Below are positions 146-64,000 of a stretch of 64,000 nt of DNA, in pieces. A program made the translations under genes and the position numbers. The number at the start of each line of letters is the position of its first letter. The first letter of the stretch is position 1. The notes beneath the pieces are model-generated. The model was not told the origin of the DNA, did no database searches, and saw only the letters and a program-made list of their open reading frames with translations. The DNA comes from Isurus oxyrinchus (lineage: Eukaryota): the NCBI GenBank assembly GCA_026770705.1, contig JANJGN010000052.1:992001-1056000 (forward strand). Reading direction: 5' to 3'.

Positions 146-514
146 CAGAAACGTGAAGCTGGGTTACAGGATAGTAGTTGTAACTATTACTGCTGTCAAA
201 TTCTATTCTGAAAAAATAAGGTCCTGCATCTTCCCGTCTGATGTTCTTTATAATCAGGGAACAGTCGCCATCTTTCAGGTCTCCAGACAGCCGGGTCCGA
301 TGGCGGAACCGTGGTAACTCGTGACTGTGATCCTTGGAGTGAAAGGCAATAGGAGCCCAGGGAATCTGTTTCTCATTATTAAACCAGACTCCACCTCGCG
401 GTTGGTTTTCCAGACACGATGGATAACTGTAATGACAAGGAATCTGTACACACGAACCTTCCTGCGCTGTCACCTCTCGTGGAGTGTCACCTTTCCACTC
501 TTGTGAGGGTTCAA
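146..514 (-). CDS. Siglec-like gene A, second V-set Ig exon (V2)
   Basis: Acceptor tttctctccccag| and donor TCTG|gtaag; 369 nt, phase 1-1, open. Siglec V-set pattern: GSCVQIPC, GDCSL (B-E strand Cys pair) and F-strand YFFRIE with the sialic-acid-binding Arg. Confidence 0.9.
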
Positions 515-579
515 CTGGGGAGAGAAATCTCAATATTTAACTCTGGATGGTTTGTGGATCCACTAGACTCAACTTTACA

Positions 580-1400
580 GATGAGGCTGAATTGGGGGGA
601 TGGTTAATACTGAGGAGAATGGCAACAAATTATTTTGGCAGGATGAATAGAAAAACAGAATATTATTTAAATGGAGACAGGCTGCAGAATGCAGGACAGA
701 GGGATCTGGGTGTCCTTGTACATGAATCACAGAAAGTCAGCATTCAGGAACACCACGGAATGAGGAAGGCAAGTGGAATGTTGGCCTTTATTGCAAAGGG
801 ATGGAGTATAAAAGGAGGGACGTCTTGCAACAGCTGCACAGGGTGAGATTGTATCAGGAGCAGTGTGTACAGTTCTGGTCTCCTTACTTAGGGAGGGATA
901 GACTCTGCATTGGAGGCAGTTCAGAGGAGGTTCACTGGGCTGATTCCTGGGATTAAAGGGTTTGTCCTGTGAGGAAATGGTGAGCAGGTTGGGCCTGTAT
1001 CCATTGGAGTTTAGAAGAATGAGGGGTGACCTTATTGAAACATATCCGATTCCGAGGGGGCTTGACAGGGTGGATGCTGGGAGGATGTTTGCCCCTCGTG
1101 GGGGAATCTAGAACCAGGGAGCACAGTTTCGGAATGAGGACTCTCCCATTTAAGACTGAGATGAGGAGGAATTTCCTCTCTCAGAGGGGCGCTAGCCTGT
1201 GGAATTCTCTTCCCCAGAGAGCAGTGGAGGCTGGGCCATTGAATAGACTCAAGGCTGAGTGAGGCAGGTTTTTGATCGACAAGGGAGTCAAGGGTTTGGG
1301 GGACAGGCAGGAAAATGGAGTTAAGGCCACAACCAGATCTGCGAGAGTAGGCTCGGGGGGCCGAATGGCCTGCTCAAGTCCCTATTTCTTATGTTCCTAC
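580..1400 (+). mobile_element. CR1-like LINE 3' fragment (copy at ~34378-35200)
   Basis: Degenerate RT C-terminus (YYLNG..QRDLGVLVHESQK..ASGMLAFI; RRNFLSQR..LWNSLP) and CR1-type tail. Confidence 0.8.
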
Positions 1401-1959
1401 ATTCTTACCTTCTTGAAATATTAAAGCTGCAGAATAAACATGCAAGTGACTGACCTGCTCGACCCACCTTCCATCTGGGGGTCCCATGGGGAGGACCCTT
1501 CCTGAGCCAGATCCACCAGCCAACATGGTCTGGATCTGAGCACAGGAGACACGGGGGGGTGTGACTAACAGGCTCCTTGTGACAGGCCCCGTCTGTCCAA
1601 TGGCTGGCTTTCAGCTGCCAAGGCCAGAGTGGTCCTTGCTAAAACCGGCTCAGGACAGGTCAGGACACCTGTGCAGATCCCCTCCAGCGCTGCAGCCTCT
1701 GTACAAACCCCTCATGCGCTTGTGGAGAGACACAAACAAGGCTGCACATTACCGAGGAGAATCCCCTCTACGGACTAAGGGGCTGACTCATCACCTTAAA
1801 CTCAGCAAATGAGGAGGCTCTCACTCGGTATCGGGACTTGGCATTCACTCAATAAAAATAATCAAATGACATTTTGGTCAGAAATCTAAGGAGGTTGTAC
1901 ATTCCCTCAAAAATAAGACTCAAGCTGGGGTCGAGGGTCAAAGGGCAACAACTTATATT

Positions 1960-3570
1960 TACACAACAACTTGAACATGACAAATCACCCCAAGGTGCTA
2001 CACAGGAGCGTCATAAAACAAAGTATGTCACCCAGACACATGTGGAGATATTAGCGACAGCTGGCCAGAAGAGGACGGTGTTATGGAGAATCTTCAAAGA
2101 GGGATGAAATGGATAGTGAGAGAGAGAGAGATAGAGATAGAGAGAGAGAGAGAGAGGGACGGAGAGGGGTTGAGGGAGGGTATTACAGAGCTCGGGCCCC
2201 AGGCAGCTGAAGGCACGGCCGCCGATGTTGGAGTGATGGGACCGGGGGATGGTCAAGAGGCTGGAATTGGAGGAGAGCAGAGACCTCAGAGGGTTGGAGG
2301 GGCTGGAGGAGGTTACAGAGATAGGGAGGGTTGTAGTGATTGGAGGAGTTACAGAGATAGGGAGGGTTGTAGAGGCTGGAAAATTGAAGAGAGATTGGGA
2401 GAGTGTAGGGTATGGAGGAGTTTGCAGAGCTAGAGAGGTTTGTAGTGGCTGGAGGAGTTTGCAGAGATTGGTAGGTTTGTTGGGCAGGATGATTTTACAG
2501 ATATAGGGAAGCGGTGGAGGCTTGAAGAGGTTACAGAGAATGGGATGGTTGTAGGTACTGGAGGAGGATGAGGAGATTACAGGGATAATGAGGAAACAAA
2601 GATGAAAATTGTGACATTGAGACTTTGCTTGACCAGGAGCCAGTCTCGGTCATCGAGCAGAGCGGGTGATGAGGGAACGGGACTTGGTGTGAGTAAGGAC
2701 GTGGTCAGCAGTTTTGGATGGCCTCAAGTTTATGGAGTGTAGAGCGTGTTGTTGGAACAGTCGAGTCTGGAGGTAATGAAGGCGTGGATGAGGGTTTCAG
2801 CAGCAGATGAGCTGAGACAGGGTGATGTCGTGCGATGTTACGGAGGTGGAAATAGACGGTGTTAGTGAGGGCGCAGATGTGAGGCCGGAAGCTCATCTCA
2901 GGATCAAATGGGACAACAAAGCTGTGAACAGATTGGCTTCAATCTCAGAGAGCTGCCAGGGAGAGGAATGGAGTTGGTAGCGAGGGAACAGAGTTTGGAG
3001 TGGGGAATGAAGACAATGGCTTCAGTCTTTCCAATATTTAATTGGAGGGAATTTCTGCCCATCCAGTACTGGATGTCGGATAAGCAGCCTGATAATTTAG
3101 CAGCAGTGGAGGAGTCGAGAGAGGTGGTGGTGAGGTAGAGCTGGGGATCCTCAGTGGACAGGTGAAAACTAACAGTGTTCAGATGATGCTGCAAAGCCAT
3201 TGCAAGTGATTCTCTGGCTACGATGAGATGGATAAGAATGGAGCCAGGGGAGAGCAGTCCCACCCAGCTGGACAACAGTGGAGAGGTGTTGGAGGAGGAT
3301 GGTGTGGTCGAGCATGTCAAAGGCTGCAGACAGATCGAGAAGGACGAGGAGGGAAAGTTGACCTTTGTCACAGTCACACAGGATGCCATTTGTGACCTTG
3401 ATAAGAGTTGTTTCAGCACAGTGGCTGGGGTGGGAACCTGATTGGAGGGATTCAAACATGGAGTTCCGGGAAAGATGGGAACGGATTCGGGAGATGGAAA
3501 CACGTTCAAGGACTTTGCAGGGGAAAGAGAGGCTGGAGATGGGACGGGGGTTTACATGGACAGTGTGAGG
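1960..3570 (-). mobile_element. L2-like LINE fragment (copy at ~35780-37360)
   Basis: RT motifs LLDLSAAFDxLDH, LQLNIGKTE, GGRAFSCLGPEL; internal purine-rich repeat. Confidence 0.82.
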
Positions 3571-3823
3571 GGTGGAAGGTGTAGTGGGGAGGAGACACTT
3601 CACTCAGGGGGGAGGTGTCATCACCCCTCAACTCGGTTTACGTTACAGCTATGATGTGGATTCAATCACACACAATAAGCTCATGGATCTGGGAGTAGAA
3701 ATAGACAAATCATTAAAAATAGTGACGCTGGTTAACACGGCCAAAAAACAAGCAAATCAAACACTATTATTTCCCATTGAGTGTTGAATGTGAATTGTTG
3801 AGTAATTATAACACAGCACTTAC

Positions 3824-4198
3824 CAGAAACGTGAAGCTGGGTTTCAGGACGGTCGTTGTATCTATTCCTGTTGTCAAATTCTAGGCTGAATAAATAATAT
3901 CCTGCATCTTCCCGTCTGACATTGTTTATAATCAGGGAACAGTCACCATCTTTCAGGTCTCCAGACAGCCGGGTCCGATGGTGGAACCTTATTAACTTGC
4001 GATTGTGATTCTTGGAGTGAAAGGCTATAGACCGTTCATTCCATGTTTCCCAATTCCTTCTCATATACCAGAATCCGACTGGTGATCTCGCTACTAAATA
4101 TGATGGATAACTGTAATTACATGGAATCTGTACACACGAACCTTCCTGCGCTGTCACCTCTCCTGGAGTGTTGACTTTCCACACTTGTGATAGTCCAA
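3824..4198 (-). CDS. Siglec-like gene A, first V-set Ig exon (V1); essential Arg replaced by Ser
   Basis: Acceptor ttctctccgtag|, donor TCTG|gtaag; 375 nt, open. Cys pattern conserved, but the F strand reads YYLFSLE (AGC at 3885-3887). Confidence 0.88.
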
Positions 4199-13051: not shown

Positions 13052-13091
13052 CTTGGAGAAGTGACAGGAGGAAGTAAGATTTCCCGATCAT
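13052..13091 (-). CDS. Gene A leader (signal peptide) exon MIGKSYFLLSLLQ
   Basis: ATG at 13091, 40 nt, donor CAAG|gtaat, phase 1. Joins either V exon in frame (LLQ-VGLSQ or LLQ-VEPSQ). Four conserved copies in the window. Confidence 0.8.
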
Positions 13092-13541
13092 TGTCCACTC
13101 CCAGATATTTCATTAGCTTCTGACTCTCAAACTCTGAAAGAGAAAGGAGTTAAATAGACCTCACCTCTTGTCCGACAGCTCTCAAGAGATCAGAACTGCT
13201 TTTGGACAATGTCTTGACAGACTAATTTAATTCTCTGTGGGATGATAGGTACTCTGCAGAGAGTTACAAGGCTTTAAGAAAGAAAAACATTGAAGGATTT
13301 GCATTTCTATTGCACCTTTCACCACCTCAAGACGTCCCAAAGCTCATGTCTCTGCAATTCCCTCATCCCTTGAGCTAGAAAGATGTTCTGTACAACAGAC
13401 TTGAGCCTCACACCCTGATCTCAATAATCAGTAGAAATCTTTCAAATGCATGAATCATTGGAATCTGTCTTTATAAAGTCACAACATCAACAAAGGACGG
13501 TGTTGGTCATGGATGTGTATTCCAATCGTTCCGTTACTTAC

Positions 13542-13626
13542 CCAGGACCCGTCCGACTGCTCGTCTGGAGAGGAACTGCCCACATGCTCTGCTTGAGCTG
13601 AATGACCTCTTCCTGTGCTGCTCCCT
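13542..13626 (-). pseudogene. Copy of cytoplasmic exon 1 lying upstream of the gene A leader
   Basis: 85-nt paralog of 25981-26065 with both splice sites retained. Confidence 0.7.
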
Positions 13627-19800: not shown

Positions 19801-20012
19801 CAGAAACGTGAAGCTGGGTTACAGGATAGTAGCTGTAACTATTACTGCTGTCAAATTCTATTCTGAAAAAAATAAGGTCCTGCATCTTCCCGTCTGATGT
19901 TGTTTATAATCAGGGAACAGTCGCCATCTTTCAGGTCTCCAGACAGCCGGGTACGATGGCGGAATCTTTGATCCCTGTGACTGTGACCCTCGGAGTGAAA
20001 GGCTATAGACCA
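19801..20012 (-). pseudogene. Gene C 5'-truncated, frameshifted V-set exon
   Basis: 3' half of a V exon with intact donor; the A-run near 19866 has 7 nt versus 6 in gene A; the 5' end is fused to a cytoplasmic-exon-1 acceptor. Confidence 0.85.
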
Positions 20013-20819
20013 TTTAGGCTGCTCCCTCTGTGTATTTAATTAGAAAGGGCTGATGTGTCTCTGTGAGACAAAATGAGGAAGTTGGTTCAAAGTGACAGAG
20101 CAGCTCATGTTTTGAGATGTTGGTGAACTGTTAACCCTTTGTGTCCTGACCCTGTGATGATATTTCTGCTCACAGGTGGACAGTCATTGACCAGGAATTT
20201 CTCCTGTGGGTCAGTGGGTTTCACAGCCAAATTCAGGGGGTCAGAATGTTGTGGGGTTCAAGACCCCATTCAGGGGACGTCTGCCCCACAGAGTAGACTG
20301 AAACTCCCCAGTGTCAGTACTGAGCAAGTGCTGCACTGTCGGATGGTCATTACTGAGCGAGTGTTGCACTATTGTAAGGTCAGTATTGAGGGAGATCTCC
20401 ACTTTTGGAGGGTCAGTACTGAGTGAGTGCTGCACTGTCAGAGGGTCATTAATCAGGGAGTGCTGCACTGTTGGAGGGACATTAATCAGGGAGTGCTGCA
20501 ATGTTGGAGGATCAGTACTGAGGGAGTGCCGCACTGTATTAAGGTGCTGATTTAGAAGACAGGACAATGGATTAGGAGCCCTCAGAACTCCCCCCGTGAT
20601 TTCCAATCGATCCGTTACTTACCCAGGACCTGTCCGACTGCTCGCCTGGAGAGGAACTGCCCACACGCTCTGCTTGGGCTGAATGGGCCTCCTCCTGATC
20701 CTGTGTTATAGGCTCGAGGGGCTGAGTGGGCCTCCTCCTGTTCCTGTGTAAAAGGCTAAAGGGGCTGAATTGGCCTTCCCCAGTTCCTGTGTACCAGGCT
20801 CGAGTACATTAGGAGCATC

Positions 20820-23750: not shown

Positions 23751-23867
23751 TTATAAATTCCCATAAACAGAATCCTTGGCAAAATCACAGTTTGCGTAAA
23801 GATCATCATCTGTATCAGGATTGACTCCGCGGTTAGATTTCATTTCCAGATCCTTCTCATCTTTCTT
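23751..23867 (-). CDS. Gene B terminal coding exon (LYANC, SVYGNL)
   Basis: tttctattacag|, phase 0; KKDEKDLEMKSNRGVNPDTDDDLYANCDFAKDSVYGNL then TAA. Confidence 0.8.
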   Translation of the reverse strand, partial: KKDEKDLEMKSNRGVNPDTDDDLYANCDFAKDSVYGNL

Positions 23868-23964
23868 CTGTAATAGAAACAGAAATGATCAGAGTGACAA
23901 TCAGAGTGATCAGTGTTTAGTATTATTGATCCAAATCGAAAATTGCACCCACAATACATACATT

Positions 23965-25228
23965 AATTATTGACACTGAACAGGGTTTGATTATTGATAC
24001 TGAACGGGGTTTGATTATTGATTCTGAACGGGGTTTGATTATTGATACTGAATGGGGTTCGATTATTGATACTGAACGGGGTTTGATTATTGATACTGAA
24101 CGGGGTTTGATTATTGATACTGATGGGATTTGTTTATTGATTCTGAACGGGGTTCGATTATTGATACTGAACGGGGTTTGATTATTGATACTGAATGGGG
24201 TTTGATTATTGATACTGAACGGGGTTTGATTATTGTTACTGAACGGGGTTTGATTATTGACACTGAACGGGGGTTGATTATTGATACTGAACGGGGTTTG
24301 ATTATTGATACTGAACGGGGTTTGATTATTGATACTGAATGGGGTTTGATTATTGATTGTGAATGGTGTTTGATTATTGATACTGAACGGGGTTTGATTA
24401 TTGTTACTGAACGGGGGTTGATTATTGACACTGAACGGGGGTTGATTATTGATACTGAACGGGGTTTGAATATTGATACTGAACGGGGGTTGATTATTGA
24501 TACTGATCGGGGGTTGATTATTGATACTGAACGGGGGTTGATTATTGACACTGAACGGGGTTTGATTATTGATTCTGAACGGGGTTTGATTATTGAAACT
24601 GTACGGGGTTTGATTATTGATTATGAACGGGTTTTGATTATTGATACTGAACGGGGTTTGATTATTGACACTGAACGGGGTTTGATTATTGATTCTGAAC
24701 GGGGTTTGATTATTGATACTGTACGGGGTTTGATTATTGATTATGAACGGGTTTTGATTATTGATACTGAACGGGGTTTGATTATTGATTATGAACAGGT
24801 TTTGATTATTGACACTGAACAGGGTTTGATTATTTATACTGAACGGTGTTTGATTATTGATCCTGAACGGAGTTTGATTATTGATCCTGAAAGGGGTTTG
24901 ATTATTGATACTGAACTGGGTTTGATTATTGATACTGAACTGGGTTTGATTATTGATTCTGAAAGGAGTTTGATTATTGATACTGAATGGAGTTTGATTA
25001 TTGACATTGAACGGGGTTTGATTATTGATTCTAAACGGTGTTTGATTATTGAACCTCAACGCAGTTTGATTATTGATACTGAACGGGGTTTGTTTATTGA
25101 TTCTGAACAGTGTTTGATTATTGATTCTGAAAGGGGTTTGATTATTGATACTGAACGGGGTTTGATTATTGATTCTGAATGGGGTTTGATTATTGATACT
25201 GAACGGGGTTTGATTATTGATTCTGAAC
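23965..25228. repeat. 24-bp minisatellite (tgattattgatactgaacggggtt), about 50 copies
   Basis: Direct inspection; lies in the last intron of gene B. Confidence 0.95.
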
Positions 25229-25363
25229 TGTGTTGGGTGTGAGTTTGGTTGGGTTTGGGAGTGACTGTATAAAACATTGCAGATACAGGACTGGAGCAGC
25301 CATATCAATAACCAGGCTACTGGAGCAGCTGAGAGGCTGGGGATCCTGTGGTGTGTGACTCAC

Positions 25364-25468
25364 CTGATTCCTCAAAGCCCAACCACGCTCACAGTTTTCA
25401 TAAACAGGACCTCGATATTCATCAACACGGTGGTTCGATTTGATTCCTGCTTTCCCCTTGCCTCTCTT
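25364..25468 (-). CDS. Gene B cytoplasmic exon 2 (VYEN motif)
   Basis: tctctattacag| and CAG|gtgagt; 105 nt, phase 0-0; KRGKGKAGIKSNHRVDEYRGPVYENCERGWALRNQ. Confidence 0.7.
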
Positions 25469-25980
25469 CTGTAATAGAGATGGAAATGGACAGAGTGACA
25501 ATCAACATGATGTGTATTCGGTGTTGGGTTTGATTATTGGGGAGAGAGTTCCAGATTTCCACTCCCCTTTGTGTGAAGAAGTGCTTCCTGACATCACCCC
25601 TGAACGGCCTGGCTCCAATCTGAAGTTCCAGCCCCCTTGTTCTGGACTCCACCCGACCCCCACCACCCACCCCCACCCGAGGGAATAGCTTCTCTCTATC
25701 GACCCTATCGAGTGTTTAATCAGTTTGAACCCCTGAGTTACATCACTCCTTTAATCTTCTAGACCTGAGGGAATATAATCGTAGACTGTGTGTAACCTGT
25801 CTGCATAATTTAACCAGAAAGATGTTCTGTACAACAGACCTGAGCCTCACACCCAGATCTCAATAATCTGTAGAAATCTTTCAAAGGCATCAATCATTGG
25901 AATCTGTCTTTATAAAGTCACAACATTAACAAAGGACGGTGTTGGTGGTGGAAGTGAATTCCAATCGTTCCGTTACTTAC

Positions 25981-26065
25981 CCAGGACCTGTCCGACTGCT
26001 CGCCTGGGGAGGAACTGCCCATACGCTCTGCTTGGGCTGAATGACCTCTTCCTGTGCTGCTCCCT
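25981..26065 (-). CDS. Gene B cytoplasmic exon 1
   Basis: acacacag| and CTGG|gtaagt; 85 nt, phase 2-0, which exactly bridges the TM exon and the next exon; GSSTGRGHSAQAERMGSSSPGEQSDRSW. Confidence 0.72.
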
Positions 26066-26717
26066 CTGTGTGTTTAATGAGAAAGGGTTGATGTGTCTCT
26101 GTGAATCAAATCAGGAATTGGGGAACAATTGTGAAAACCCTTTCATTGAAACGTAGGGCCTTAGTGTTGTGTTGTAAGCAAACTGTTAACCCTTTGTGTC
26201 CTGACTCTGTGTCGTGATTCCTGTGTAAAGCTGAGCAGTCGTTGAGCGAGTTTCAATTCACTGCTCAATCCAGCTGTTGAGGTGGATCTTCTGAAGGAGC
26301 AGATGTTGCTCAGCGCTCCTTAAAAATGTGAGAGACTGAACAACGTGTAGGAGGATGAGAGAGAGAATGAGAAGGAGAGCATTAGTGGAGATAAGAGAGA
26401 GTGAATGAAACATGGAAAGAGGAAAGAGATTGCATTCACTAACAAAAGAAAGGTTTTCATTTATATAGCTCCTTTCACATCCTCAGTAGGTCACAAGGTA
26501 TCTTATGGTCCGGGTCAACACTGCCAGTTACAGGACTGAGTTGTGAAACAGTGAGTGTTGGATGAGATGTTAAACAGTAGGTGAACATCAAAACTCTTCA
26601 GGGGCTGTGAAGGGTTTTGGGTTGTGAAAGGTGCTATAGAAATGCAAGTTCTTTCTATAAGGAGAGAAGTTTGAAGAAAACATTTTCAAAAACAACCAAT
26701 TAAACCTTCACACTTAC

Positions 26718-26814
26718 TTTCTCACACACTTGAAGATGAAGAATCCACTCAGTCCAACACTCAAACAGATTCCAGCTCCAAGCAATCCTGCTTTCCATTC
26801 ATTGGAATCTCGCC
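26718..26814 (-). CDS. Gene B transmembrane exon
   Basis: gattttacag| and GAAA|gtaagt; phase 1-2; (W)RDSNEWKAGLLGAGICLSVGLSGFFIFKCVRK, a 20-aa hydrophobic run followed by basic residues. Not shown in this frame by the ORF track. Confidence 0.85.
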
Positions 26815-28078: not shown

Positions 28079-28360
28079 ATTCCACAGTGATGGTTATGAA
28101 CCCCTGCACTGCTCCATGTTCATTCTCTGCCACACACTGATAGTCTCCCGTGTCCCTGGATGTAACGTGAGGAATCACCAACCGCAGCTCATTGTTGGAA
28201 CTTGTTCTGTTCATTGGGACATTAAGATGTCGCCACGTCAGGTTAGAAGCTGGGAAGCTCTCGACAGAGCAGATTATCACTGCAGAATTCCCCTCAATTA
28301 TATTGATCGATGAAGCGTTAATCAAATCAAGAGAAGTAAATGAGAGATTCTGTGGTGCGT
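28079..28360 (-). CDS. Gene B Ig C2 exon, copy 3
   Basis: 282 nt, canonical splice sites, near-identical to copies 1 and 2. Confidence 0.9.
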
Positions 28361-29263
28361 CTGAAAATAAATAAAGGTTTCATTGTGAGCAAACACAGTG
28401 CACAGCAAGACTCCAGGTATCATCTCTCTCCATCTGGTGTCTATGTGCATGTCAAGGCTTCTTTCTCCATTATAAGTTTCTATGTCACCATTTGTAACAG
28501 ACACTGCCAGTGTGTTCCTTTTTGCATATTCATGGGAAGTGGATGTATCTATCTAGACCAGCATTTATTACCCATCCCTAATTGCCCTTGAGGAGGTGGT
28601 GGTGAGTTTTTCACCTCCAGAGGATTCCCAGCCTCTGACCGGCTCCTGTAGCCACAGTATTTATGGCCGGTCCAGTTCGGTGTTTGGTTAACATCCCCCA
28701 GGATGTTGATTGTGGGGGATTCAGTGATAGTAAACTCACTGAACATCAAGGGGAGATGGTTAGATTCTCTCTTGTTGGACATGATCACTGCCTGGTGCTT
28801 GTGATGCATTAATTCTCATTTCTCAGCCCAAGCTGAGTGTTATTCAGCTCTTGCTGCATGTGGATATGTAAACTGTCACGCTGTAATTACAGCCTTCCAC
28901 CAGAGGAGACACTGTCAGGCTAGAAGAAAACAAAATGTCTTTCACATCATCAGGAGGTTCACAGGGATTTGACAGTGGAGGAATTGCTTTAGAATAATGG
29001 GGTATTGAGTGATAAACCTACAATTCTCTGTGCAGGTGACTGCTCGTCCAATACAGGGTCTTGTTCAGCTGATATTGTCAGTGTTTCAGAGCAGAATCTG
29101 CAGCAACACTCCAGTGCAGCACAGGGAGAACAGACAACTCACACATGTCTGTGTGTGTGTGAGCAAGCACACGTGTGATTCTGTATGTATGCTTCTGTGT
29201 GTGAGCATGCAGGCGTGCACACCTGTGCACATGTGGGATTGCACATGAATGCTTGTTTGTATG

Positions 29264-29308
<45 letters not shown>

Positions 29309-29343
29309 GTATGTGAGTGATGTTGAAGTTTGCTTTAACTCAC

Positions 29344-29625
29344 ATTCCACAGTGATGGTTATGAAACCCTCCACTGCTCCATGTTCATTCTCTGCCACAC
29401 ACTGATAGTCTCCAGTGTCCCTGGATGTAACGTGAGGAATCACCAACCACAGCTCATTGTTGGAACTTGTTCTGTTCATTGGGACATTAAGATGTCGCCA
29501 CGTCAGGTTAGAAGCTGGGAAGCTCTCGACAGAGCAGATTATCACTGCAGAATTCCCCTCAATTATATTGATCGATGAAGTGTTAATCATATCAAGAGAA
29601 GTAATTGAGAGATTCCGTGGTGCAT
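29344..29625 (-). CDS. Gene B Ig C2 exon, copy 2
   Basis: 282 nt, canonical splice sites, near-identical to copy 1. Confidence 0.9.
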
Positions 29626-30408
29626 CTGAAAACATATAAAGATTTCATTGTGAACAAGGCTCCACGCTTCATTTCTCTCTATCTGGTATCTGCTTTCATT
29701 TCAAGGTATCTTACCCATTATAAGTTACTATGTCAACATCTATAATGGTCACGGCTGGTGTGTTTCTTTAGGGACATTCATGGGAAGTGGGTGTCACTGG
29801 TTAGGCCAACATGTATTACCCATCCCTAATTGTCCTTGAGAAGCTGGTGGTGAGTTTTTCACCCCAACAGATTTCCCAGCTTCTGACCTGCTCCTAAAGC
29901 CACAGTTATTATGGCCGGTCCAGTTAGTTGTTTTGTTAACATCCTCCAGGATGTTGATGGTAGGGGATTCAGCAATGGTAAAGTGATTGAATATCAAGGG
30001 GAGATGGTTAGATTGCCTCTTGTTGGAGATGTTCACTGCCTGGTACTTGTGTGGCATGAACATTACTTGTCATTTCTCAGCCCAAGCTGAAAGTTGCTCA
30101 GCTCTTGCTGCATGTGGATATGTAAACTGTCACGCTGTAATTACAGTCTTCCACCAGAGGAGACACTGTCAGGCTAGAAGAAAAGAAAGTGAATATCACA
30201 TCATCAGGATGTTCACAGGGATTTGACAGTGGAGGAATTGCTTTAGAATAATGGCGTATTGAGTGATAAACCTACAATTCTTTGTGCAGGGGGCTGCTCG
30301 TCCAATACAGGGTCTTGTTCAGCTGATGTCGTCAGTGTTTCAGAGCAGAATCTGGATCAACACTCCAGTGCAGGACAGGGAGAACAGACAACTCACACAT
30401 GTCTGTGT

Positions 30409-31651
30409 CAAAAAAAAAATAGCTGGAAAAACTCAGCAGCTCTGGCTGCATCTGCAGAGAGGAACTCAGTTAACGTTTCGAGTCCGTATGACTCATCAAC
30501 AGAACGAAGGAAAAATGGAAAAGAGGTGAAATGTAAGCTGGTTTAAGGGGGAGGGGAGTTGGACAGGTAGAACTGCATAGAGGGCCAGTGATAGGTGGAG
30601 ATTTCCAAAAGATGTCATAGACAAACGGACAAAGAGGTGTTGACGTTGGTGATATGAGTTAAGAAATGTACTAATTGTGAGATGAAGGGTAGAAAGCTGG
30701 ACGAGCAAGTGACAGATAGCCCTAGTGCGGTGGGGTAGGGGGAAGGGATTGAAGAAGGTTAAAAGGTAAAACAAGGGATGTAATTAAATTTAAAAATAAG
30801 AATAGAAATGGCTGGGAAAAGAAAAATATATTTTAAAAATCTGTAACTTATTAGAAAAAATTGAATCGGAAAGAGGGTGGGGATGGAGGAGGGAGTTCAT
30901 GATCTAAAGTTGTTGAACTCAATATTCAGTCCGGAAGTCTGTAAAGTGCCTGTTCGGAAGATGAGGTGCTGTTCCTCCAGTTTGTGTTGGGCTTCACTGG
31001 AACAATGCAGCAGGCCAAGGACGGACATGTGGGCATGAGAGCAGGGTGGGGTGTTAAAATGGCAAGCGACAGGGAGGTCTGGGTCATGCTTGTGGACAGA
31101 CCGAAGGTGTTCATCAGAGCGATCACCCAGTCTGTGTTTGGTCTGTCCCATGTACAGGAGACCACATTGGGAGCAGTGAATGCAGTAGATTAAATTGAGG
31201 GAAGTGCAAGTGAAATGCTGCTTCACCTGGAAGGAGTGTTTGGGCCCTTGGACGGTGAGGAGGGGGGAAGTAAAGGGGCAGGTGTTGCACCTTCTACAAT
31301 TACATGGGAAGATGCTATAGGGGGGTGTTGAGGTGATGGGGGTGAGGGAGGAGTGGACCAGGGTTTCCTGGAAGGAATGGTCCCTATGGAATGCCGACAG
31401 GGGGGGTGAAGGGAAGATGTGGTTGGTGGTGGCATCATGCTGGAGTTGGCAGAAATGGCGGAGGATGATCCTTTGAACGCGGAGGCTGGTGGGGTGAAAA
31501 GTGACGACAAAGGGGACCCTACCATGGTTCTGGGAGGGAGAAGAAGGTGTGAGGGCAGATGCGTGGGAGATGGGCCGGACACGGGTGAGGGCCCTGTCGG
31601 TTAAGGAAGAAGGAAGACATGTCAGAAGAATGATTATCAGTTTTGTGACAG
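30409..31651 (-). mobile_element. Penelope-like insertion in a gene B intron
   Basis: RVPFVVTFHP..CRRCNTC..FTCTSLNLIYCIHCSQCGLLYMGQT (GIY-YIG); atgtctgtgt repeated on both flanks. Confidence 0.85.
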
Positions 31652-31779
31652 ATGTCTGTGTGTGAGCACGCACCAGTGTGAATCTGTGTATGTACGCTTC
31701 TGTGTGTGAGCATGCCGGTGTGCACACGTGTACACATGTGGGCTTGTACATGAATGCTTGTTTGTGGGCACGTGTATGT

Positions 31780-31947
31780 NNNNNNNNNNNNNNNNNNNNN
31801 NNNNNNNNNNNNNNNNNNNNNNNNNNNNNNNNNNNNNNNNNNNNNNNNNNNNNNNNNNNNNNNNNNNNNNNNNNNNNNNNNNNNNNNNNNNNNNNNNNNN
31901 NNNNNNNNNNNNNNNNNNNNNNNNNNNNNNNNNNNNNNNNNNNNNNN
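31780..31947. other. Assembly gap (N); others at 51886-52178 and 53734-53877
   Basis: Runs of n. Confidence 1.
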
Positions 31948-31958
31948 TGTACACTCAC

Positions 31959-32240
31959 ATTCCACAGTGATGGTTATGAACCCCTCCACTGCTCCATGTT
32001 CATTCTCTGCCACACACTGATAGTCTCCAGTGTCCCTGGATGTAACGTGAGGAATCACCAACCACAGCTCATTGTTGGAACTTGTTCTGTTCATTGGGAC
32101 ATTAAGATGTCGCCACGTCAGGTTAGAAGCTGGGAAGCTCTCGACAGAGCAGATTATCACTGCAGAATTCCCCTCAATTATATTGATCGATGAAGCATTA
32201 ATCATATCAAGAGAAGTAATTGAGAGATTCTGTGGTGCAT
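31959..32240 (-). CDS. Gene B Ig C2 exon, copy 1
   Basis: 282 nt, phase 1-1; APQNLSI...ICSVESFPASNLTW...DTGDYQCVAENEHG. Confidence 0.9.
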
Positions 32241-32919
32241 CTAAAAACAAATAAAGATCAGTTACTTACTCTGACTGTGAAGCACTTTGAGAGACCCTGA
32301 GAATGTGAAAGGTGTGATATCAATGGTGGTTCCATCACCACAAAGCACGTTATCGAGGCAGACGCTTCAGTCCTGTACTAAGGGAGTGATGAACATTTGG
32401 AGGGTCAGTTCTGAGGGAGTGCTGCACTGTCAGAGGGTCAGTACTGATATTGTGCTGCACTGTTGGAGGGTCAGTACTGAAGGAGCGCTGTGCTGTCAGA
32501 GGGTCAGTGCTGAGGGAGTGCTGCACTGTCAGAGGGTCAGTACTGAGGGAGTGCTGCACAGTCAGAGGGTCAGTACTGAGGGAGTACCACGGTTTCAGAG
32601 GTTCAGGACTGAGGGAGTGCTGCACTGTCGGAGGGTCAGTACTGAGGGAGTGCTGCACAGTCAGAGGGTCAGTACTGAGGGAGTGCTGCACAGTCAGAGG
32701 TTCAGTATAGAGGGAGTGTTGCACATTCGGAGAATCAATATTGAGGGAGTGCTGCAGCGTCAGAGAATCAGTATTGAGGGACTGCTGCAGTGTCAGAATT
32801 GAATTTCTATCAGTTAAAGACTACTGACTTGTTGTTAAGCACAGTGCAGTTGTGGGATCTTGTTGTGTATGATGTTAGGCCTTTCAAGATAATGTAGAAT
32901 GAAGGAAGTCCGTTCTTAC

Positions 32920-33216
32920 CTTGCACAGTTAGTATGAGGGTCCGCTCCGATGAAACAGATGGATATCTCACTCTGCAGCTGAGAGTGTGTCCGTGGTGTT
33001 TGAGTGATGGGATCAGGGTCAGAACAGAAGTATAGGTCAGAGTGACACCATGCTGAGTTACAGTGTTTGAGACTGATCCACGTACGTCAGTGGGAGTGTC
33101 CCAGGTTAAGACAGGTGCTGCTGTTCCATTGCACGTTGTGTTGAAGGTGCAGCTTACATCCACAGGCTTTCCTGCAATAATTTCAGCAGGGAATATCGTG
33201 GGTTTATCTGTGAAAT
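32920..33216 (-). CDS. Gene B Ig C2-type exon (Siglec domain-2-like)
   Basis: ctgttag| and CAAG|gtaag; 297 nt; DFTDKPTIFPAEIIAGKPVDVSCTFNTTCNG...LTW...LSCRV, with the extra Cys typical of Siglec domain 2. Confidence 0.9.
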
Positions 33217-33944: not shown

Positions 33945-34313
33945 CAGAAACATGAAGCTGGGTTACAGGGTAATAGTTATGGCTCGGACCATTGTCAAAT
34001 TCTATTCTGAAAAAATAAGGTCCTTCATCTTCCCGTATGATGTTGTTTATAATCAGGGAACAGTCGCCATCTTTCAGGTCTCCAGACAGCCGGGTCCGAT
34101 GGTGGAACCGTGGTAACTCGTGACTGTGATCCTTGGAGTGAAAGGCAATGGGAGCCCAGGGAATCTGTTCCTCATTATTAAACCAGACTCCACCTCGCAG
34201 TTGGTTTTCCAGACACGATGGATAACTGTAATGACATGGAATCTGTACACACGAACCTTCCTGCGCAGTCACCTCTCGTGGATTGTCACCTTTCCACTCT
34301 TGTGAGGGTTCAA
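33945..34313 (-). CDS. Gene B V-set exon V2; open frame but acceptor mutated AG>GG
   Basis: Near copy of 146-514; acceptor reads tctccccgg| at 34314-34315; donor intact. Possibly skipped or spliced at a cryptic site. Confidence 0.65.
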
Positions 34314-37300
34314 CCGGGGAGAGAAATCTCAATATTTAACTCTGGATGGTTTGTGGATCCACTAGACTCAAATTTACAGATGAGGCTGAATTGGGGGGAT
34401 GGTCAATACTGAGGAGAATGGCAACAAATTATTTTGGCAGGAAGAATAGAAAAACAGGATATTATTTAAATGGAGACAGGCTGCAGAATGCAGTACAGAG
34501 GGATCTGGGTGTCCTTGTACATGAATCACAGAAAGTCAGCTTTCAGGAACACCACGGAATGAGGAAGGCAAGTGGAATGTTGGCCTTTATTGCAAAGGGA
34601 TGGAGTATAAAAGGAGGGAAGTCTTGCAACAGCTGCACAGGGTGAGATTGTATCAGGAGCAGTGTGTACAGTTCTGGTCTCCTTACTTAGGGAGGGATAG
34701 ACTCTGCATTGAAGGCAGTTCAGAGGAGGTTCACTGGGCTGATTCCTGGGATTAAAGGGTTTGTCCTGTGAGGAAATGTTGAGCAGGTTGGGCCTGTATC
34801 CATTGGAGTTTAGAAGAATGAGGGGTGACCTTATTGAAACATATCCGATTCCGAGGGGGCTTGACAGGGTGGATGCTGGGAGGATGTTTCCCCCTTGTGG
34901 GGGAATCTAGAACCAGGGAGCACAGTTTCGGAATGAGGGCTCCCCATTTAAGACTGAGATGAGGAGGAATTTCCTCTCTCAGAGGGGCGCTAGCCTGTGG
35001 AATTCTCTTCCCCAGAGAGCAGTGGAGGCTGGGCCATTGAATAGACTCAAGGCTGAGTGAGGCAGGTTTTTGATCGACAAGGGAGTCAAGGGTTTGGGGG
35101 ACAGGCAGGAAAATGGAGTTAAGGCCACAACCAGATCAGTGAGAGTAGGCTCGAGGGGCCGAATGACCTGCTCCTGTCCCTATTTCTTATGTTCCTACAT
35201 TCTTACCTTCTTAAAATATTAAAGCTGCAGAATAAACATGCAAGTGACTGACCCGCTCGACCCACCTTCCATCTGGGGGTCCCATGGGGAGGACCCTTCC
35301 TGAGCCAGATCCACCAGCCAACATGGTCTGGATCCGAGCACAGGAGACACGGCGGGGAGTGATTAACAGGCTCCTTGTGACAGGCCCCGTCTGTCCAATG
35401 GCTGGCTTTCAGCTGCCAAGTCCAGAGTGGTCCTTGCTAAAACCGGCTCAGGACAGGCCAGGACCCCTGTGCAGACCCCCTCCAGCGCTGCAGCCTCTGT
35501 ACAAACCCCTCATGCGCTTGTGGAGAGACACAAACAAGGCTGCACATTACCGAGGAGAATCCCCTCTACGGACTAAGGGGCTGACTCATCACCTTAAACT
35601 CAGCAAATGAGGAGGCTCTCGCTCGGTATCGGGGCTTGGCATTGGCTCAATAAAAATAATCAAATGACATTTTGGTCAGAAATCTAAGGAGGTTGTACAT
35701 TCCCTCAAAAATAAGACTCAATCTGGGGTCGAGGGCCAAAGGGCAACAACTTATATTTACACAACAACTTGAACATGACAAATCACTCCAAGGTGCTACA
35801 CAGGAGCGTCATAAAACAAAATATGTCACCCAGACACATGTGGAGATATTAGCGACAGCTGGCCAGAAGAGGTCGGTGTTATGGAGAATCTTAAAAGGGG
35901 GATGAAATGGATAGTGAGAGAGAGACAGAGTGATAGAGAGAGTGAGAGAGAGGCACGGAGAGGGGTTGAGGGAGGGTATTACAGAGCTCGGGTCCCAGGC
36001 AGCTGAAGGCATGGCCGCCGATGTTGGAGTGATGGGATCGGGGGATGGTCAAGAGGCTGGAATTGGAGGAGAGCAGAGACCTCAGAGGGTTGGAGGGGCT
36101 GGAGGAGGTTACAGAGAGAAGGAAGGTTGTAGTGATTTGAGGAGTTACAGAGATAGGGAGGGTTGTAGGGGCTGGAAAATTTAAGAGAGATTGGGAGAGT
36201 GTAGGGTATGGAGGAGTTTGCAGAGCTAGCGAGGTTTGTAGTGGCTGGAGGAGGTTGCAGAGATTGGTAGGTTTGTTGGGCAGGATGATTTTACAGATAT
36301 AGGGAAGCGGTAGAGGCTTGAAGAGGTAACAGAGATAGGAATGGTTGTAGGTACTGGAGGAGGACGAGGAGATTACAGAGATAGTGAGGAAACAAAGATG
36401 AAAATTTGGACATTGAGACTTTGCTTGACCAGGAGCCAGTCTCGGTCATCGAGCAGAGCGGGTGATAAGGGAACAGGACTTGGTGTGAGTAAGGACGTGG
36501 TCAGCAGTTTTGGATGGCCTCAAGTTTATGGAGTGTAGAGCGTGTGTTGGAACAGTCGAGTCTGGAGGTAATGAAGGCGTGGATGAGGGTTTCAGCAGCA
36601 GATGAGCTGAGACAGGGTGATGTCGTGCGATGTTACGGAGGTGGAAATAGACGGTGTTAGTGAGGGCGCAGATATGAGGCCGGAAGCTCATCTCAGGATC
36701 AAATGGGACAACAAAGCTGTGAACAGATTGGCTTCAATCTCAGAGAGCTGCCAGGGAGAGGAATGGAGTTGGTAGCGAGGGAACAGAGTTTGGAGCGGGG
36801 AATGAAGACAATGGCTTCAGTCTTTCCAATATTTAATTGGAGGGAATTTCTGCCCATCCAGTACTGGATGTCGGATAAGCAGCCTGATAATTTAGCAGCA
36901 GTGGAGGAGTCGAGAGAGGTGGTGGTGAGGTAGAGCTGGGGATCCTCAGTGGACAGGTGAAAACTAACACTGTTCAGATGATGCTGCAAAGCCATTGCAA
37001 GTGATTCTCTGGCTACGATGAGATGGATAAGAATGGAGCCAGGGGAGAGCAGTCCCACCCAGCTGGACCACAGTGGAGAGGTGTTGGAGGAGGATGGTGT
37101 GGTCGAGCGTGTCAAAGGCTGCAGACAGATCGAGAAGGACGAGGAGGGAAAGTTGACCTTTGTCACAGTCACACAGGATGCCATTTGTGACCTTGATAAG
37201 AGCTGTTTCAGCACAGTGGCTGGGGTGGGAACCTGATTGGAGGGATTCAAACATGGAGTTCCGGGAAAGATGGGAACGGATTCGGGAGATGGAAACACGT

Positions 37301-37618: not shown

Positions 37619-38005
37619 CAGAAACGTGAAGCTGGGTTACAGGATAGTAGCTATAACTATTTCTGCTGTCAAATTCTATTCTGAAATAATAATATCCTGC
37701 ATCTTCCCGTCTGATGTTGTTTATAATCAGGGAACAGTCGCCATCTTTCAGTTCTCCAGACAGCCGGGTCCGATGGCGGAACCGTGGTAACTCGCGATTG
37801 TGATCCTTGGAGTGAAAAGCTATGGTCCCTCTAGACCTTGTATTCCATGTATTCCATGTGTACCATTTCACGTACCAGATTCCGACACGTGCTCTCCCTA
37901 CTACACGTGCTGGATAACTGTAGTTACATGGAATCTGTACACACGAACATTCCTGCGCTGTCACCTCTCGTGGAGTTTCACCTTTCCACTCTTGTGACAG
38001 TCCAA
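37619..38005 (-). CDS. Gene B V-set exon V1 (Arg intact, YYYFRIE)
   Basis: Canonical ag/gt, 387 nt, phase 1-1, open; Siglec Cys pattern plus an extra Cys (ECSC). Confidence 0.9.
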
Positions 38006-43306: not shown

Positions 43307-43346
43307 CTTGGAGAAGTGACAGGAGGAAGTAAGATTTCCCGATCAT
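43307..43346 (-). CDS. Gene B leader exon MIGKSYFLLSLLQ
   Basis: Paralog of 13052-13091 with the same donor; upstream acceptor ctttctctttcag| near 43389 implies a 5' non-coding exon. Confidence 0.8.
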
Positions 43347-58977: not shown

Positions 58978-59668
58978 GTAATATCATCGTCAGTATGGAC
59001 AGATTTATGTTTAACAGTTTTTGTAAAAGATCATTCTTATCTCTTTAATCTGTAACGTCCTGCAACGCAACCAAACAACTTCCCAGATCTCTGTGTTACT
59101 CCAATTCCGGCCTCTTGACCATCCCCCGATTCCCATCACTCCAATTGTGGCGGCCGGGCCTTCAGCTGCCTGGTGCCTGAGCTCTGGAATTCACTCCCTA
59201 AACCTCGGTGATGGAGGAGATCAGAGGGTTTCATTTTACTGAGAATCACCACGACCACATCACAGCTGCAGTCAGAATAGACAGAGAGTCCAGCCCTCGC
59301 ACTTCCTGCACAGTTTCACCATAGCAACCACAATAAGGAAGTAAAATAACTGAAAGTTAAACCGAAGCCAAACCAGTCGGTGTAGAGAGATGAGATGTTT
59401 ACACAGTTTCCCTGTGTATCTTGTAGACACTGTGTTGGGTGGAAGACTGGCTTCACTAAACAGGGTCCTGAGGACCATGAGCCAATGTAGAATGAACTTG
59501 TTCACTCCTGTGTCCAGGATTCTCTTCCATCCATTGTGAAACCTTGGGGAGTTCCTTGTGTGTCCTGTAGTTAGTCCACACTGCAGCCACTGTGCCCCAG
59601 TGATGGAGGGAGTGGATATCAAGTCTAGTGGATTGACAAACCATCCAGAGTTAAATATTGACATTTCT

Positions 59669-59698
59669 ATTACCCTGTAACCCGGCTTCACGTTTCTG
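59669..59698 (+). pseudogene. Gene D V-exon remnant (last ~30 nt only)
   Basis: Pre-acceptor intron ttaaatattgacatttct is joined directly to attaccctgtaacccggcttcacgtttctg|gtaag. Confidence 0.85.
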
Positions 59699-60170
59699 GT
59701 AAGTGCTGCGTTATAATTACTCAACAATTCACATTCAACACTCAATGGGAAATAACACTAACTGTGACGTTTACATATTAACACAAAACACAGCTTATTA
59801 TAACACACTGTCTGATTCTCAATAACCTGGTGATCGCTTCCAGTTCAGTCCTAAAGCAACCTCTAATACTCACTTTAATATCAATGATGAAAAGCATTAA
59901 CTGTATTATCAGGTTATCCACTCCCATCAATCTCTCCTGTCCTGTTTAAAAGTCTGACGTATCGATAAAAGAAAGATGTGCATTTCTGCAGCGCAATTTA
60001 CCACCTCAGGAGGATCCAAATCCCTTCACAGCCATTGAAATTATTCCTGAATTGTAGTCACAGATGTAAAACACAGCAGGCAGTTTGTGCACAGCAAGAT
60101 CCAACAAACCACAATGTAATAAATCACCCAGATCACTGAGGAAATGAGAAGCCAGTGAACTCAAACCTCT

Positions 60171-60208
60171 GGTCTGATGAAGAGTCATACGGACTCGAAA
60201 CGTTAACT
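60171..60208 (+). ncRNA. Hammerhead-ribozyme-like motif in a Penelope-derived repeat
   Basis: CTGATGA-a-GAGTC atacg GACTC-GAAAC-GTT; core and stem II intact, stem I weak. Confidence 0.5.
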
Positions 60209-60557
60209 CTGTCTTCCTCTCCACTGATACTGTCAGACCTGCTGAGTCTTTCCAGCAATTTTTGTTTTGGTTTCAGATTTCCAGCATCCGCAGTATTCTG
60301 CTTTTAACTCCAATCTCTGGTCTGAGCCTCTTCTCTCATCCAGTGTTCTCAATTCACATGTCTCGGAGTGAACGTGTATTAAGCTGAGAGACAGAAACAC
60401 TACTGCCAAAGAGCAAGAAAATCTTTCCTGATCATTGTAACCTCTCAGTTCTGATATCATCCTTGTAAAAGTGCTTTCTCTTGTGGGACTGTGGTTTCTA
60501 TTTGAACTGATGCTTCACGTTATATTTCTCTAAAAGGATCCATTCTCTGTCTGTTAG

Positions 60558-60854
60558 ATTTCACAGATAAACCCATGATATTCCCTGCTGAAATTATTGC
60601 AGGAAAGCGCGTCAATGTAAGCTGCACCTTCAACACAACGTGCAATGGAACAGCAGCACCTGTCTTAACCTGGGACACTCCCACTGACGTACGTGGATCA
60701 GTCTCAAACACTGTAACTCAGCATGGTGTCACTCTGACCTATACTTCTGTTCTGACCCTGATCCCATCACTCAAACACCACGGACACACTCTCAGCTGCA
60801 GAGTGAGATATCCATCTGTTTCATCGGAGCGGACCCTCGTACTAACTGTGCAAG
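60558..60854 (+). CDS. Gene D Ig domain-2-like exon
   Basis: 297 nt, canonical sites, open frame. Confidence 0.8.
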
Positions 60855-61185
60855 GTAATTACATACACTTTCATTCTACATCAGCACTCCCTCAGCGCTG
60901 ACCCTCTGACAGTGCAGCCCGTTCTCAGTATCCACATTCTAAGGCCTCTCTAAGTGCTTCACAGTCGATAGAAGTTAATTGATCTTTATTTGATTATTGC
61001 TGAATGAAGAGACAAGCTGTCTAAACTTTACATCTCGCACATACCATTCTCCATGGCAACACCTCCACCTATCAGAGACCACTTGCCAACCAATCAGCAC
61101 TCTCTTCCCATTAAGTATAAATTGTTGTTCACTTTCTGTTGGTAATCCTGTGAACGGGCTTCTTGATTCCTGCCCTGAGATCTGA

Positions 61186-61329
61186 ATGTCCAAATGAACA
61201 GAACAAGTTCCAACAATGAGCTGTGGTTTGTGATTCCTCACGTTACATCCAGGGACACTAGAGACTATCAGTGTGTGGCAGAGAATGAACATGGAGCAGT
61301 GGAGGGATTCATAACCATCACTGTGGAAC
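61186..61329 (+). pseudogene. Gene D C2 exon remnant
   Basis: Same 5' replacement as 18172-18320. Confidence 0.8.
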
Positions 61330-63007
61330 GTGAGTGTACACAGACTTCAACATCTCTCTCAGATTCGAACACTACACAAACACCCTCAAACATACACATC
61401 TAAGTAGACACATGCAGACACACATATATGACCACACAGAAAGACACACTCACACACAAACACACTAACACACACTCCCCTGTGGGCTACCTGACCTCCC
61501 TCAGTACTGCCCTGGAGAGTTGGCCTGAATTCTGGGATTTGTGTTCCCATTCATATTTATGCAAGAATATGGAAATTACAAAGTCTATTACAGACACTCA
61601 GATGCATAGAGACACTCACAGATACTCTCTGCCTCTCCAACTCTCTCTCTCCCTTTAAGAAGCTTCCTGAAAGCTCACCCTTCGAACAATCACCAGTCCC
61701 AAATCCTCCTTATCTGATTTGTGTGATTTTCTTTGTGTATTTGAGAGTAAGAGAGAGGTGGAGAGGTTTAGGAGGAGAATTCCTGTTGGTGAAAAGCTTA
61801 CATCATGTTCCCACCTTTCCAGTGCCCATATTTCACATGATGTCCAATGTCCTTGTTCATAATGGGAATTGCCTATGTAAACATCACGCTGTAGTTACAG
61901 TCTCCTACCAGTGGTGGCATTGTAGCACTTAATCCTTGTGTTTCCCAGCTTTTCAAGCAACACCACTTCCCAGTTTGCTCCACAAGCTGTGAGTTCATTG
62001 GAATTCAATTATTTCTCAAACGGTAGATTTGATGTCATTTTATTGAAAACTTCCTCAGTGCCTCCCTGAAGGGTTTACACTCTCTGGGAAGCAGGAATAG
62101 GCTGGATGTTGGGGAGTTCATCTTTTCCCAGAGAGTAGTGATCCTCGGGAATGTGCTGTCAGTGGGAGTGGTGGTTGCTGATTCTCTGTCGCCTTCAAGA
62201 GGGATCTGGAGTCGTTACTGACTGGGGGAGAGATCATGGAAACGGAGAATGATACAGCACAGGAGGAGGCCATTCAGTCCATTGTGCCTGTGCCAGGTCT
62301 TTCAATGTTCTATCCAATCAGATCCACTAACCACCATTCCAATTTGCCCCCATCTTCCTCCTTTAAGTATTTATCCAATTTCCCTTTTGAAAGTTCCTAT
62401 TGAATCTGCTTCCACCGCCCTTTCAGGCAGCACCTTCCAGACCACAACAACTCGCTCTGTCAAAACAAATTCTCCTCATCTCCCCCTCCGGTTCGTCAAT
62501 CTGTGTCCCTCTGGTTACCGACCCTCCTGCCCCTTAAGTACATTGATACTGTTCACCTCAACCACTCCCTGTGGGAGCGAGTTCCACATTCTCCCGTCTC
62601 TCTGGGTAAAGATTGGAACTGTTTATTAAGCGGGGGGTGTAAGTCCGTGAGGGAGTCCATCTCGATCCTGCCCGATTCGCACACGCGTCCGAGATGGATT
62701 TCCACCCTGCACTAAACGTTTCCAGAATTTTCTACAGCACAATCCTGTACACAGCGATGGAGAGAAACATTGGACAGGGAGTCCAACAGCACAATGATCC
62801 ATTCTCACCAATGTTCCACGCTAAGGGGAAAGTTCCGATTGTCCACTCTTAGAGTGTTTACAATGAAAACATTCATTCCACATTGAATCCCAGTAAATGG
62901 CTCAATATTACAGCAAATGTTGCAGTGATATGAAGCTTGATTGTTCAGCCAGAGTGAGAGATTGAAAGCGGAGAGTCAGTGATGATTTCTTTCTGTGTGT
63001 TCTCTAG

Positions 63008-63147
63008 ACAGTGGAGGAGAGATTCTGCACGTGATCCTGATCCTGGGAATACGAGCTGTGATATTCCTTGTGGCTGTGGTTATCACTATCGCTGGAGTCT
63101 GTGTCTGGGAGAGACAAACACTGAAAGGAAGTCGACAGACTGTTTGA
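63008..63147 (+). CDS. Gene D TM exon with intramembrane Arg and short tail
   Basis: Inverted paralog of 16358-16497; CGA at 63052-63054; TGA at 63145-63147. Confidence 0.82.
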
Positions 63148-64000
63148 AGCTTTGTACAGCAACAATCTGGTCAGTCAGTGCGGACAAATAACGTGTGATG
63201 TTGGGTTAAGTTGTAAAGAAACTGGTCAGTGTCCTGGTTAGAATCACCTTCGTATCAGAGAGGCATTCCAGCACAGTAGGAGTCCATTCAGCCCATTGAG
63301 TCCATGCTGTCTCTGTGTAGAGCAATCCACTCAGTCCCATTTCCCCCTCTCTATCCCCGTATCTCTGCAAGTTTATTTCCCCTCAAGTGTCCAACCAATT
63401 TCTGTTTGATATCGTTCATCGTCTCCACTTCCACCATCCTCGTAGGCAGCGAGTTCCAGCTCATTACCACTCGCTGTGTAAAAAAGTTCCTCCTCACATC
63501 CCCCCTCTGCCCAAAACCTTCAATCTGTGTCCCCCAGTCCTTGTACCATCAGCTAATGGCAACAGCTTCTCTTTGTCTGCCTTATCTAAACCCATCATCA
63601 TCTTGTACACCTCGATCTGATCCCCCCTCAATCTCCTTTGCTCCAAGGAGAACAACCCCAGCTTCTCCAACCCAACCTTGTAGCTAAAATCCCTCATCCC
63701 TGGACCCATTCTGCTCAATCTCCTTCCCACCCTCTCAAGGACCCTCACTTCCTTCCCAAAGTGAGGAGACCAGAACTGGGCCCAATACTCTAGTTGTGAC
63801 CTAACCAGTGCTTTATAAATGTTCAGCATAACCTCCCTGTGTTTGTACTCAATCCCTCGATTTATGAAAAGCTTATTCTTTCCATCAGCACAAACAGCAA
63901 TTTCCAAGCGGACTCCCATCAGCAGACAGTGCAATGAAACATCGGCATGCCTGCTTCTTAATGTACGGAGAGAAACCTGCAACGAGAGATTCTCCTTCTT

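Follow-up and report, generated by a model that had tools for sequence, protein, structure and literature searches.

The two V-set exons nearest the start of the window (the whole 64,000-nucleotide stretch of Isurus oxyrinchus DNA analysed here) belong to a receptor gene, gene A, that is best understood as a tandem, co-included and likely disulfide-chained multi-V variant of a Siglec, with a variable tip carried on conserved inner domains. We put the probability of this reading at about 0.7. First and inner V exons of the family are not interchangeable; they differ systematically in an extra cysteine, in their starting residues and in the arginine essential to Siglecs. A preliminary description had taken the two exons for alternative ligand-binding cassettes. 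That reading is mostly superseded: tandem inclusion is the better-supported main form, with any cassette use secondary to it.

Gene A, gene B and broken copies in the window

Gene A runs on the reverse strand, and a single leader, 8.9 kb upstream, serves both V exons. Its features in the window are as follows.

13542..13622 (-): probable upstream exon, with tblastn homology to the family's first cytoplasmic exon
13052..13133 (-): gene A leader exon, phase 1, with its ATG at 13091; MIGKSYFLLSLLQ and one further base; donor after 13052 (5' boundary putative, from the upstream acceptor; basis includes leader-to-VGLSQ joints in RNA-type contigs of paralogues)
3824..4198 (-): V1 exon, tip V-set domain, 375 nt; acceptor ...ccgtag, donor gtaagt; start VGLSQ; BC-loop Cys absent; Ser in place of the essential Arg (sequence, Pfam)
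3885..3887 (-): Ser codon of V1 at the F-strand site of the Siglec essential Arg (sequence; alignment to CD33/MAG)
515..3823 (-): V1-V2 intron, 3309 nt, GT-AG, holding repeat-derived sequence (sequence)
146..514 (-): V2 exon of 369 nt, encoding the inner V-set domain; acceptor ...ccccag, donor gtaagt; start VEPSQ; extra BC-loop Cys; essential Arg present (sequence, Pfam)
414..416 (-): codon of the extra Cys34, the fourth Cys of V2; putative acceptor for the free Cys of V1 (sequence; positional counts; homologue loop assignment)
207..209 (-): essential Arg codon of V2 (sequence; alignment to CD33/MAG)

Both V exons are open and carry Pfam V-set plus Ig_CD22 matches, so the pair is not a product of chance; both are phase 1-1 by their sequence borders, as the preliminary description had read them. 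The motif EGSCVQIPC places the same Cys pair in V1 and V2, and one of its cysteines aligns, on the white-shark homologue P0133, to the region of the CD33/MAG inter-domain Cys, which bears out the earlier remark that both exons keep this Siglec residue. The preliminary description overlooked the fourth Cys of V2 and the loss of the essential Arg from V1.

Past V2 the gene leaves the window. Domain 2 lies about 0.86 kb on, followed by two further Ig exons, a transmembrane (TM) exon and Tyr-motif tails, the TM and tail exons (with LYAN/EYAQI endings) standing 9-15 kb beyond the window start. Two tail cassettes are arranged in tandem, each with a terminal EYAQI motif and stop (L019, C52:977000-982000), and are possible alternative tails; other genes in the cluster appear to hold more. 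Domain 2 of gene A (L020, C52:990986-991285, reverse strand) has an additional Cys beside its F-strand Cys, reading TLCCR versus TLSCR. About 450 nt 5' of nearly every leader there is an exon-like stretch that shares homology with one receptor type's first cytoplasmic exon, which suggests that the 5' end of these genes may derive from a tail exon.

A 95%-identical paralogue, gene B, lies at 33.8-38.2 kb of the window, with these features:

43307..43346 (-): coding part of the leader, gene B (sequence; RNA-type contigs)
37619..38005 (-): first V exon, gene B; VGLSQ; Arg present; no BC-loop Cys (sequence)
33945..34313 (-): inner V exon, gene B; VEPSQ; BC-loop Cys; acceptor GG, not AG (sequence)
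32920..33216 (-): domain-2 (C2-set) exon, gene B; canonical acceptor Cys (Pfam, sequence)
28086..32241 (-): three more Ig exons, gene B, at 32241-31966, 29626-29351 and 28361-28086 (tblastn limits)
23754..26809 (-): TM exon (26809-26717) plus three Tyr-motif cytoplasmic exons, gene B (tblastn limits)

The GG acceptor of the gene B inner V exon occupies 34314-34315 on the reverse strand, and an in-frame AG lies 14 nt downstream; to judge from these letters the exon may be skipped, or spliced at that AG. Skipping would leave an ordinary single-V receptor. The window also holds an inverted duplication with broken partial copies, at 19802-20039 (-) and 59667-64000 (+), comprising a frameshifted V and a leader and domain 2 without a V.

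A Siglec-type family in a large cluster

Matches among longer proteins number 109, every named one from a shark or ray, and white-shark and basking-shark models reach up to 93% identity. An N-terminal V-set domain is followed by C2-type Ig domains (Pfam V-set/Ig_CD22, C2-set_2 and Ig_3; exon order). The cysteines form the two sets expected of Siglecs, a B-E intra-domain pair and a V-to-domain-2 pair, placed by aligning P0133 with CD33 and MAG, and the same residues occur in V1, V2 and domain 2. The TM and tail exons of gene A supply a type I anchor with a Tyr-motif tail. The essential F-strand Arg of the N-terminal V domain is missing, V1 having Ser and V2 having Arg. As far as sequence can tell, gene A is Siglec-like in the manner of Siglec-XII, its architecture being that of a Siglec save for the tip Arg.

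About 500 assembled copies of Siglec-type genes are found in the cluster, with 1-10 V exons per leader. Exact 18-mers gave 698 V-exon and 507 domain-2 matches genome-wide, figures that count assembly copies, pseudogenes and possibly duplicated haplotypes included; their local recall was 72/77 for V exons and 46/49 for domain 2, and the V-exon matches are spread over more than 12 contigs. A leader count of 501 was rejected as a measure of gene number, being inflated by tandem leader repeats, and the domain-2 count was preferred. Among 44 leader-to-domain-2 arrays, 25 hold one V exon, 11 two, 3 three, 1 four, 1 five, 2 six and 1 ten; the arrays come from five blocks (1.26 Mb), four of them chosen near known V arrays or the window, so these proportions are not those of a random sample. 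Two tandem V exons per gene, as in the preliminary description, thus fit gene A but not the family, with 25/44 arrays single-V and 8 holding three to ten.

The ten-V array (L046-L048, C52:2280276-2301000) has one leader, then V exons spaced at 2-3 kb, then domain 2; nine of the ten V exons are complete and open, and all nine inner ones have the extra Cys. Elsewhere (L075-L080, C150:1002000-1051000) more than 20 tandem 1.8-kb units, each an upstream exon plus a leader, precede a single V exon; these are possibly alternative first exons or promoters, or an assembly artefact. Three types of TM exon share the same ectodomains in the mapped blocks, two with Tyr-motif tails and one short with an intramembrane Arg, a mixture that resembles receptor pairs with an activating and an inhibitory member. 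Scattered through the cluster, at L017 (C52:959400-962800) and other sites, is a second, distant V-set family (about 30% identity), for which the N-terminal domain of P0017 and P0034, both database models, is a match.

First and inner V exons are not interchangeable

One difference is an extra Cys in the BC loop. In the Isurus genome, where 87 of 88 V exons in the five blocks (1.26 Mb) were scored, 42 of 43 inner exons have it against 3 of 44 first exons, the latter comprising 0/19 at the head of multi-V arrays and 3/25 single ones. Two of the three exceptions have stop codons, and the third sits behind a leader with ATA for ATG. A sixth block, scored later, gave 3/3 inner and 0/7 first or single exons. 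Across 124 proteins modelled in databases for other sharks and rays, with 18 domains unscored, the Cys occurs in 45/56 inner, 0/32 first-of-array and 6/84 single domains; the 11 inner domains without it include 3/6 of basking-shark P0001 and 4/6 of two rays. The residue is conserved in lamnid, carcharhinid and orectolobid sharks and in a sawshark, and partly in rays. Fisher's p of 5e-20 for its position is overstated, because the arrays are related by recent duplication and the counts are not independent.

Exon starts follow the same division. xEPSQ or DKPSQ opens 30/43 inner exons and 0/44 first exons, and xGLSQ opens 10/43 inner ones; genome-wide, 117 of 150 xEPSQ exons fit the strict Cys pattern. 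The von Heijne rule for signal-peptide cleavage was used to judge the two starts. xEPSQ is, by its residues, a poor signal-peptide end, since, relative to the VGLS/Q site, VEPSQ would have Glu at -3 and Pro at -2; of the two exon starts said to complete the signal peptide, VEPSQ is therefore no equal of VGLSQ. The essential Arg is kept in all 43 inner exons and in 11 of 19 first-of-array exons, the eight losses including V1 of gene A.

Mean identity is 0.91 among inner exons versus 0.76 among first-of-array exons; the variation sits in the BC/CC' region of first domains, and inner exons are homogeneous. One gene has a pair of V exons with only 11 differences in 369 nt and five in residues (VGL/AEP, position 32 and His/Cys34), four of the five being position marks, and first exons that match inner ones almost completely in all else still have no extra Cys. 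A quick tree over 123 columns mostly clusters the inner exons, with 7 label changes versus 32 when labels are shuffled. Conversion tracts could carry position marks along without selection. Pairwise pN/pS is 0.90 for first, 0.57 for single and 0.68 for inner V exons and does not show positive selection in them. The first V of four long arrays (C52:2299575 and 2417015; C150:963388; C71:2378906) has Phe where the B-strand Cys would stand (CVQIPFNY), with loss of the intra-domain disulfide.

The extra cysteine as a putative inter-domain link

Cys34 of V2 lies 7 residues past the B-strand Cys and 10 ahead of the C-strand Trp; for the domain-2 acceptor Cys, here as in CD33, the distances are 6 and 10. 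The AlphaFold model of a white-shark homologue (mean pLDDT 73.5; V1-V2 linker below 50) sets the extra Cys within the loop joining strands B and C, and AlphaFold with Foldseek confirmed the domain layout. In the Ig topology the B-C loop faces the preceding domain. The free Cys of V1 has, by position, a candidate partner in V2 Cys34, and a disulfide between the two is likely. The preliminary description had supposed that only one V could adjoin a partner Cys; that premise falls, since each inner V exon brings its own acceptor-position Cys. The pattern suggests that the Siglec inter-domain disulfide may have been reused as a repeatable staple. In MAG, a disulfide between C37 (Ig1) and C165 (Ig2) limits flexibility, and R118 binds sialic acid (PMC5150538, in excerpt).

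The main transcript of gene A would run leader-V1-V2-domain 2, making V1 the tip and V2 the inner domain of one receptor. The free Cys of V1 would pair with the extra loop Cys of V2, and the free Cys of V2 with domain 2, locking the domains in line, with xEPSQ presumably acting as a linker. From their retained Arg, inner domains would bind sialic acid and supply reach and avidity, and the Arg-less tip of gene A may bind something else or nothing. Most diversity would arise through the number of genes, the variation of their tips and the length of arrays rather than through a choice of exons; skipping may be a minor form.

Splicing evidence and competing readings

Junction contigs were compared in two sets drawn from six different runs among X1-X7 (X1 and X3 are the same sample); the runs are only guessed to be RNA, GT-AG joints were seen in them, and the contigs represent paralogues, not gene A. 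Leader-to-VGLSQ joints occur in 3/4 runs of one set and 4/4 of the other, as do V-to-domain-2 joints (with two placements in the second set). Three contigs of run X1 that reach the start of an AEPSQ exon continue for 11 letters matching a V 3' end and not the leader, and in run X3 a V donor is joined to an out-of-frame cryptic acceptor 88 nt within an inner V. Splicing of V to inner V in the family is thereby weakly shown, the short side of these junctions measuring 11-20 letters in one sample. Among the joints listed, RNA-type junctions at inner V exons come from another V only; no leader-to-xEPSQ joint is among the 15 listed per set (455 and 32 more being unlisted), which is not evidence of absence. 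An apparent skip from V1 to domain 2 (joint 329-2712) was rejected, the two V exons concerned being identical over that 3' stretch and single-V genes making the same join. Of the junctions proposed for counting in the preliminary description, leader to VGLSQ, V to domain 2 and, weakly, V to inner V were thus seen, in RNA-type contigs of paralogues.

Tandem inclusion could be combined with regulated skipping, in which leader-V2 joining or omission of inner V exons gives shorter receptors and exchanges an Arg-less tip for an Arg-bearing one. The exons would permit it: all 77 complete V exons are 3n in length, their GT-AG sites are near-identical apart from two broken exceptions, and V2 of gene A has the Arg that V1 is without. 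The white-shark RefSeq isoform P0128 equals its sister P0013 minus V1, and P0130, P0134 and P0138 likewise join the leader to a Cys-bearing V; yet in all four that exon starts with VGLSQ and in none with xEPSQ, whereas V2 of gene A starts with VEPSQ, and such automated models may reflect mis-mapping or fragmented assembly. Skipping would also expose an unpaired Cys, which is avoided in 19/19 first-of-array exons. Human CD33 does skip its V exon, and the short isoform is functional, acting from inside the cell (PMC7992807, in excerpt), so an orphaned Cys does not forbid skipping; a literature search found no statement on the unpaired Cys of that short form, and nothing on splicing of the two-V-set Siglec type. 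We consider regulated skipping rather unlikely. The original proposal that one leader could splice to V1, V2 or both survives as far as splice geometry and P0128 allow it, and is weakened by the position-specialised exons and the lack of an exclusion feature. It is less probable still that the extra Cys is something other than a V1-V2 staple, serving inter-chain dimers or persisting as a duplication-borne mark of an ancestral inner exon, with the domains still co-included. Several inner domains do without it, and the clustering of inner exons in the quick tree means that the mark may have few origins; but its spacing resembles that of the domain-2 acceptor, it is conserved from lamnid sharks to a sawshark and partly in rays, and first exons otherwise near-identical to inner ones are without it.

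Dscam1 carries tandem duplicated same-phase Ig exons in one gene, in mutually exclusive clusters. Shark arrays resemble it in having up to ten similar same-phase exons, duplicated and of similar length, between one leader and one domain 2, as would suit cassettes of which each transcript takes exactly one. Such use is nevertheless very improbable. Of the exclusion mechanisms looked for (short intron, U2/U12 mix, frame or NMD, docking-selector pairing) none was detected: successive V exons are separated by introns of some 1.5 kb or more (3309 nt in gene A) with ordinary GT-AG sites, the 3n exons put no frame penalty on co-inclusion, and complementarity between the leader-V1 intron and the 300 nt upstream of each V did not rise above shuffles in 17 arrays (scores 18-28 versus shuffled maxima of 20-38). 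Alternates in a mutually exclusive cluster would be interchangeable and never co-included, whereas shark V exons are position-specific in Cys, start and Arg, and V-V junctions, though weak, were seen in contigs. Near-identical inner exons would also add little diversity.

Relation to known receptors

Primate Siglec-12/XII, like gene A, has two N-terminal V-set domains, and the precedent cited in the preliminary description is sound: a 2020 paper describes Siglec-12 as the only Siglec with two V-set domains and its Arg as lost in human (PMC7876704, in excerpt), splice variants are reported and exon 1 of SIGLEC12 encodes the signal peptide plus residues 1-142 (PMC12779560, in excerpt), and the two-V arrangement appears again in PMC13358205 (in excerpt). 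The shark genes differ in using a separate leader exon for 1-10 V exons, and in numbering hundreds; their inner V domains keep the Arg, and the extra Cys that they carry may be a further difference. CD33 and MAG (Siglec-3 and Siglec-4) are the best solved-structure matches of the white-shark homologue, with scores alike (E 2.7e-25 and 6.7e-25), and share with the shark family the arrangement of V-C2 cysteines, the Arg of strand F and tails with Tyr motifs. Theirs is one V domain with one inter-domain disulfide, whereas the shark link appears, from the residues present, to be repeated from V to V. The polymeric Ig receptor, a tandem V-type chain, is the top Foldseek match by E-value (TM-score 0.26), but at about 17% identity it is matched far less well by sequence than Siglec V domains. 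In the excerpted text of the whale-shark genome paper, Siglecs are mentioned once in passing (PMC8455134). No paper on a shark or elasmobranch Siglec expansion like this family was found in literature coverage that omits most subscription journals.

Significance

A more speculative extension, which we hold to be rather doubtful, is that sharks possess several hundred Siglec genes whose products are modular rods, each with a fast-varying, often Arg-less tip. Behind the tip, as many as nine Arg-bearing V domains, chained by disulfides, would sense the density of sialic acid multivalently, and regulated skipping of 3n exons would tune rod length or uncover a sialic-acid-binding tip.

Sharks and rays commonly have multi-V Siglecs, holding as many as ten V domains, where the 2020 paper had Siglec-12 as the sole two-V case. 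Their arrangement offers a design rule in which a conserved, multivalent stem bears a variable tip, and it indicates a very large cluster of innate receptors.
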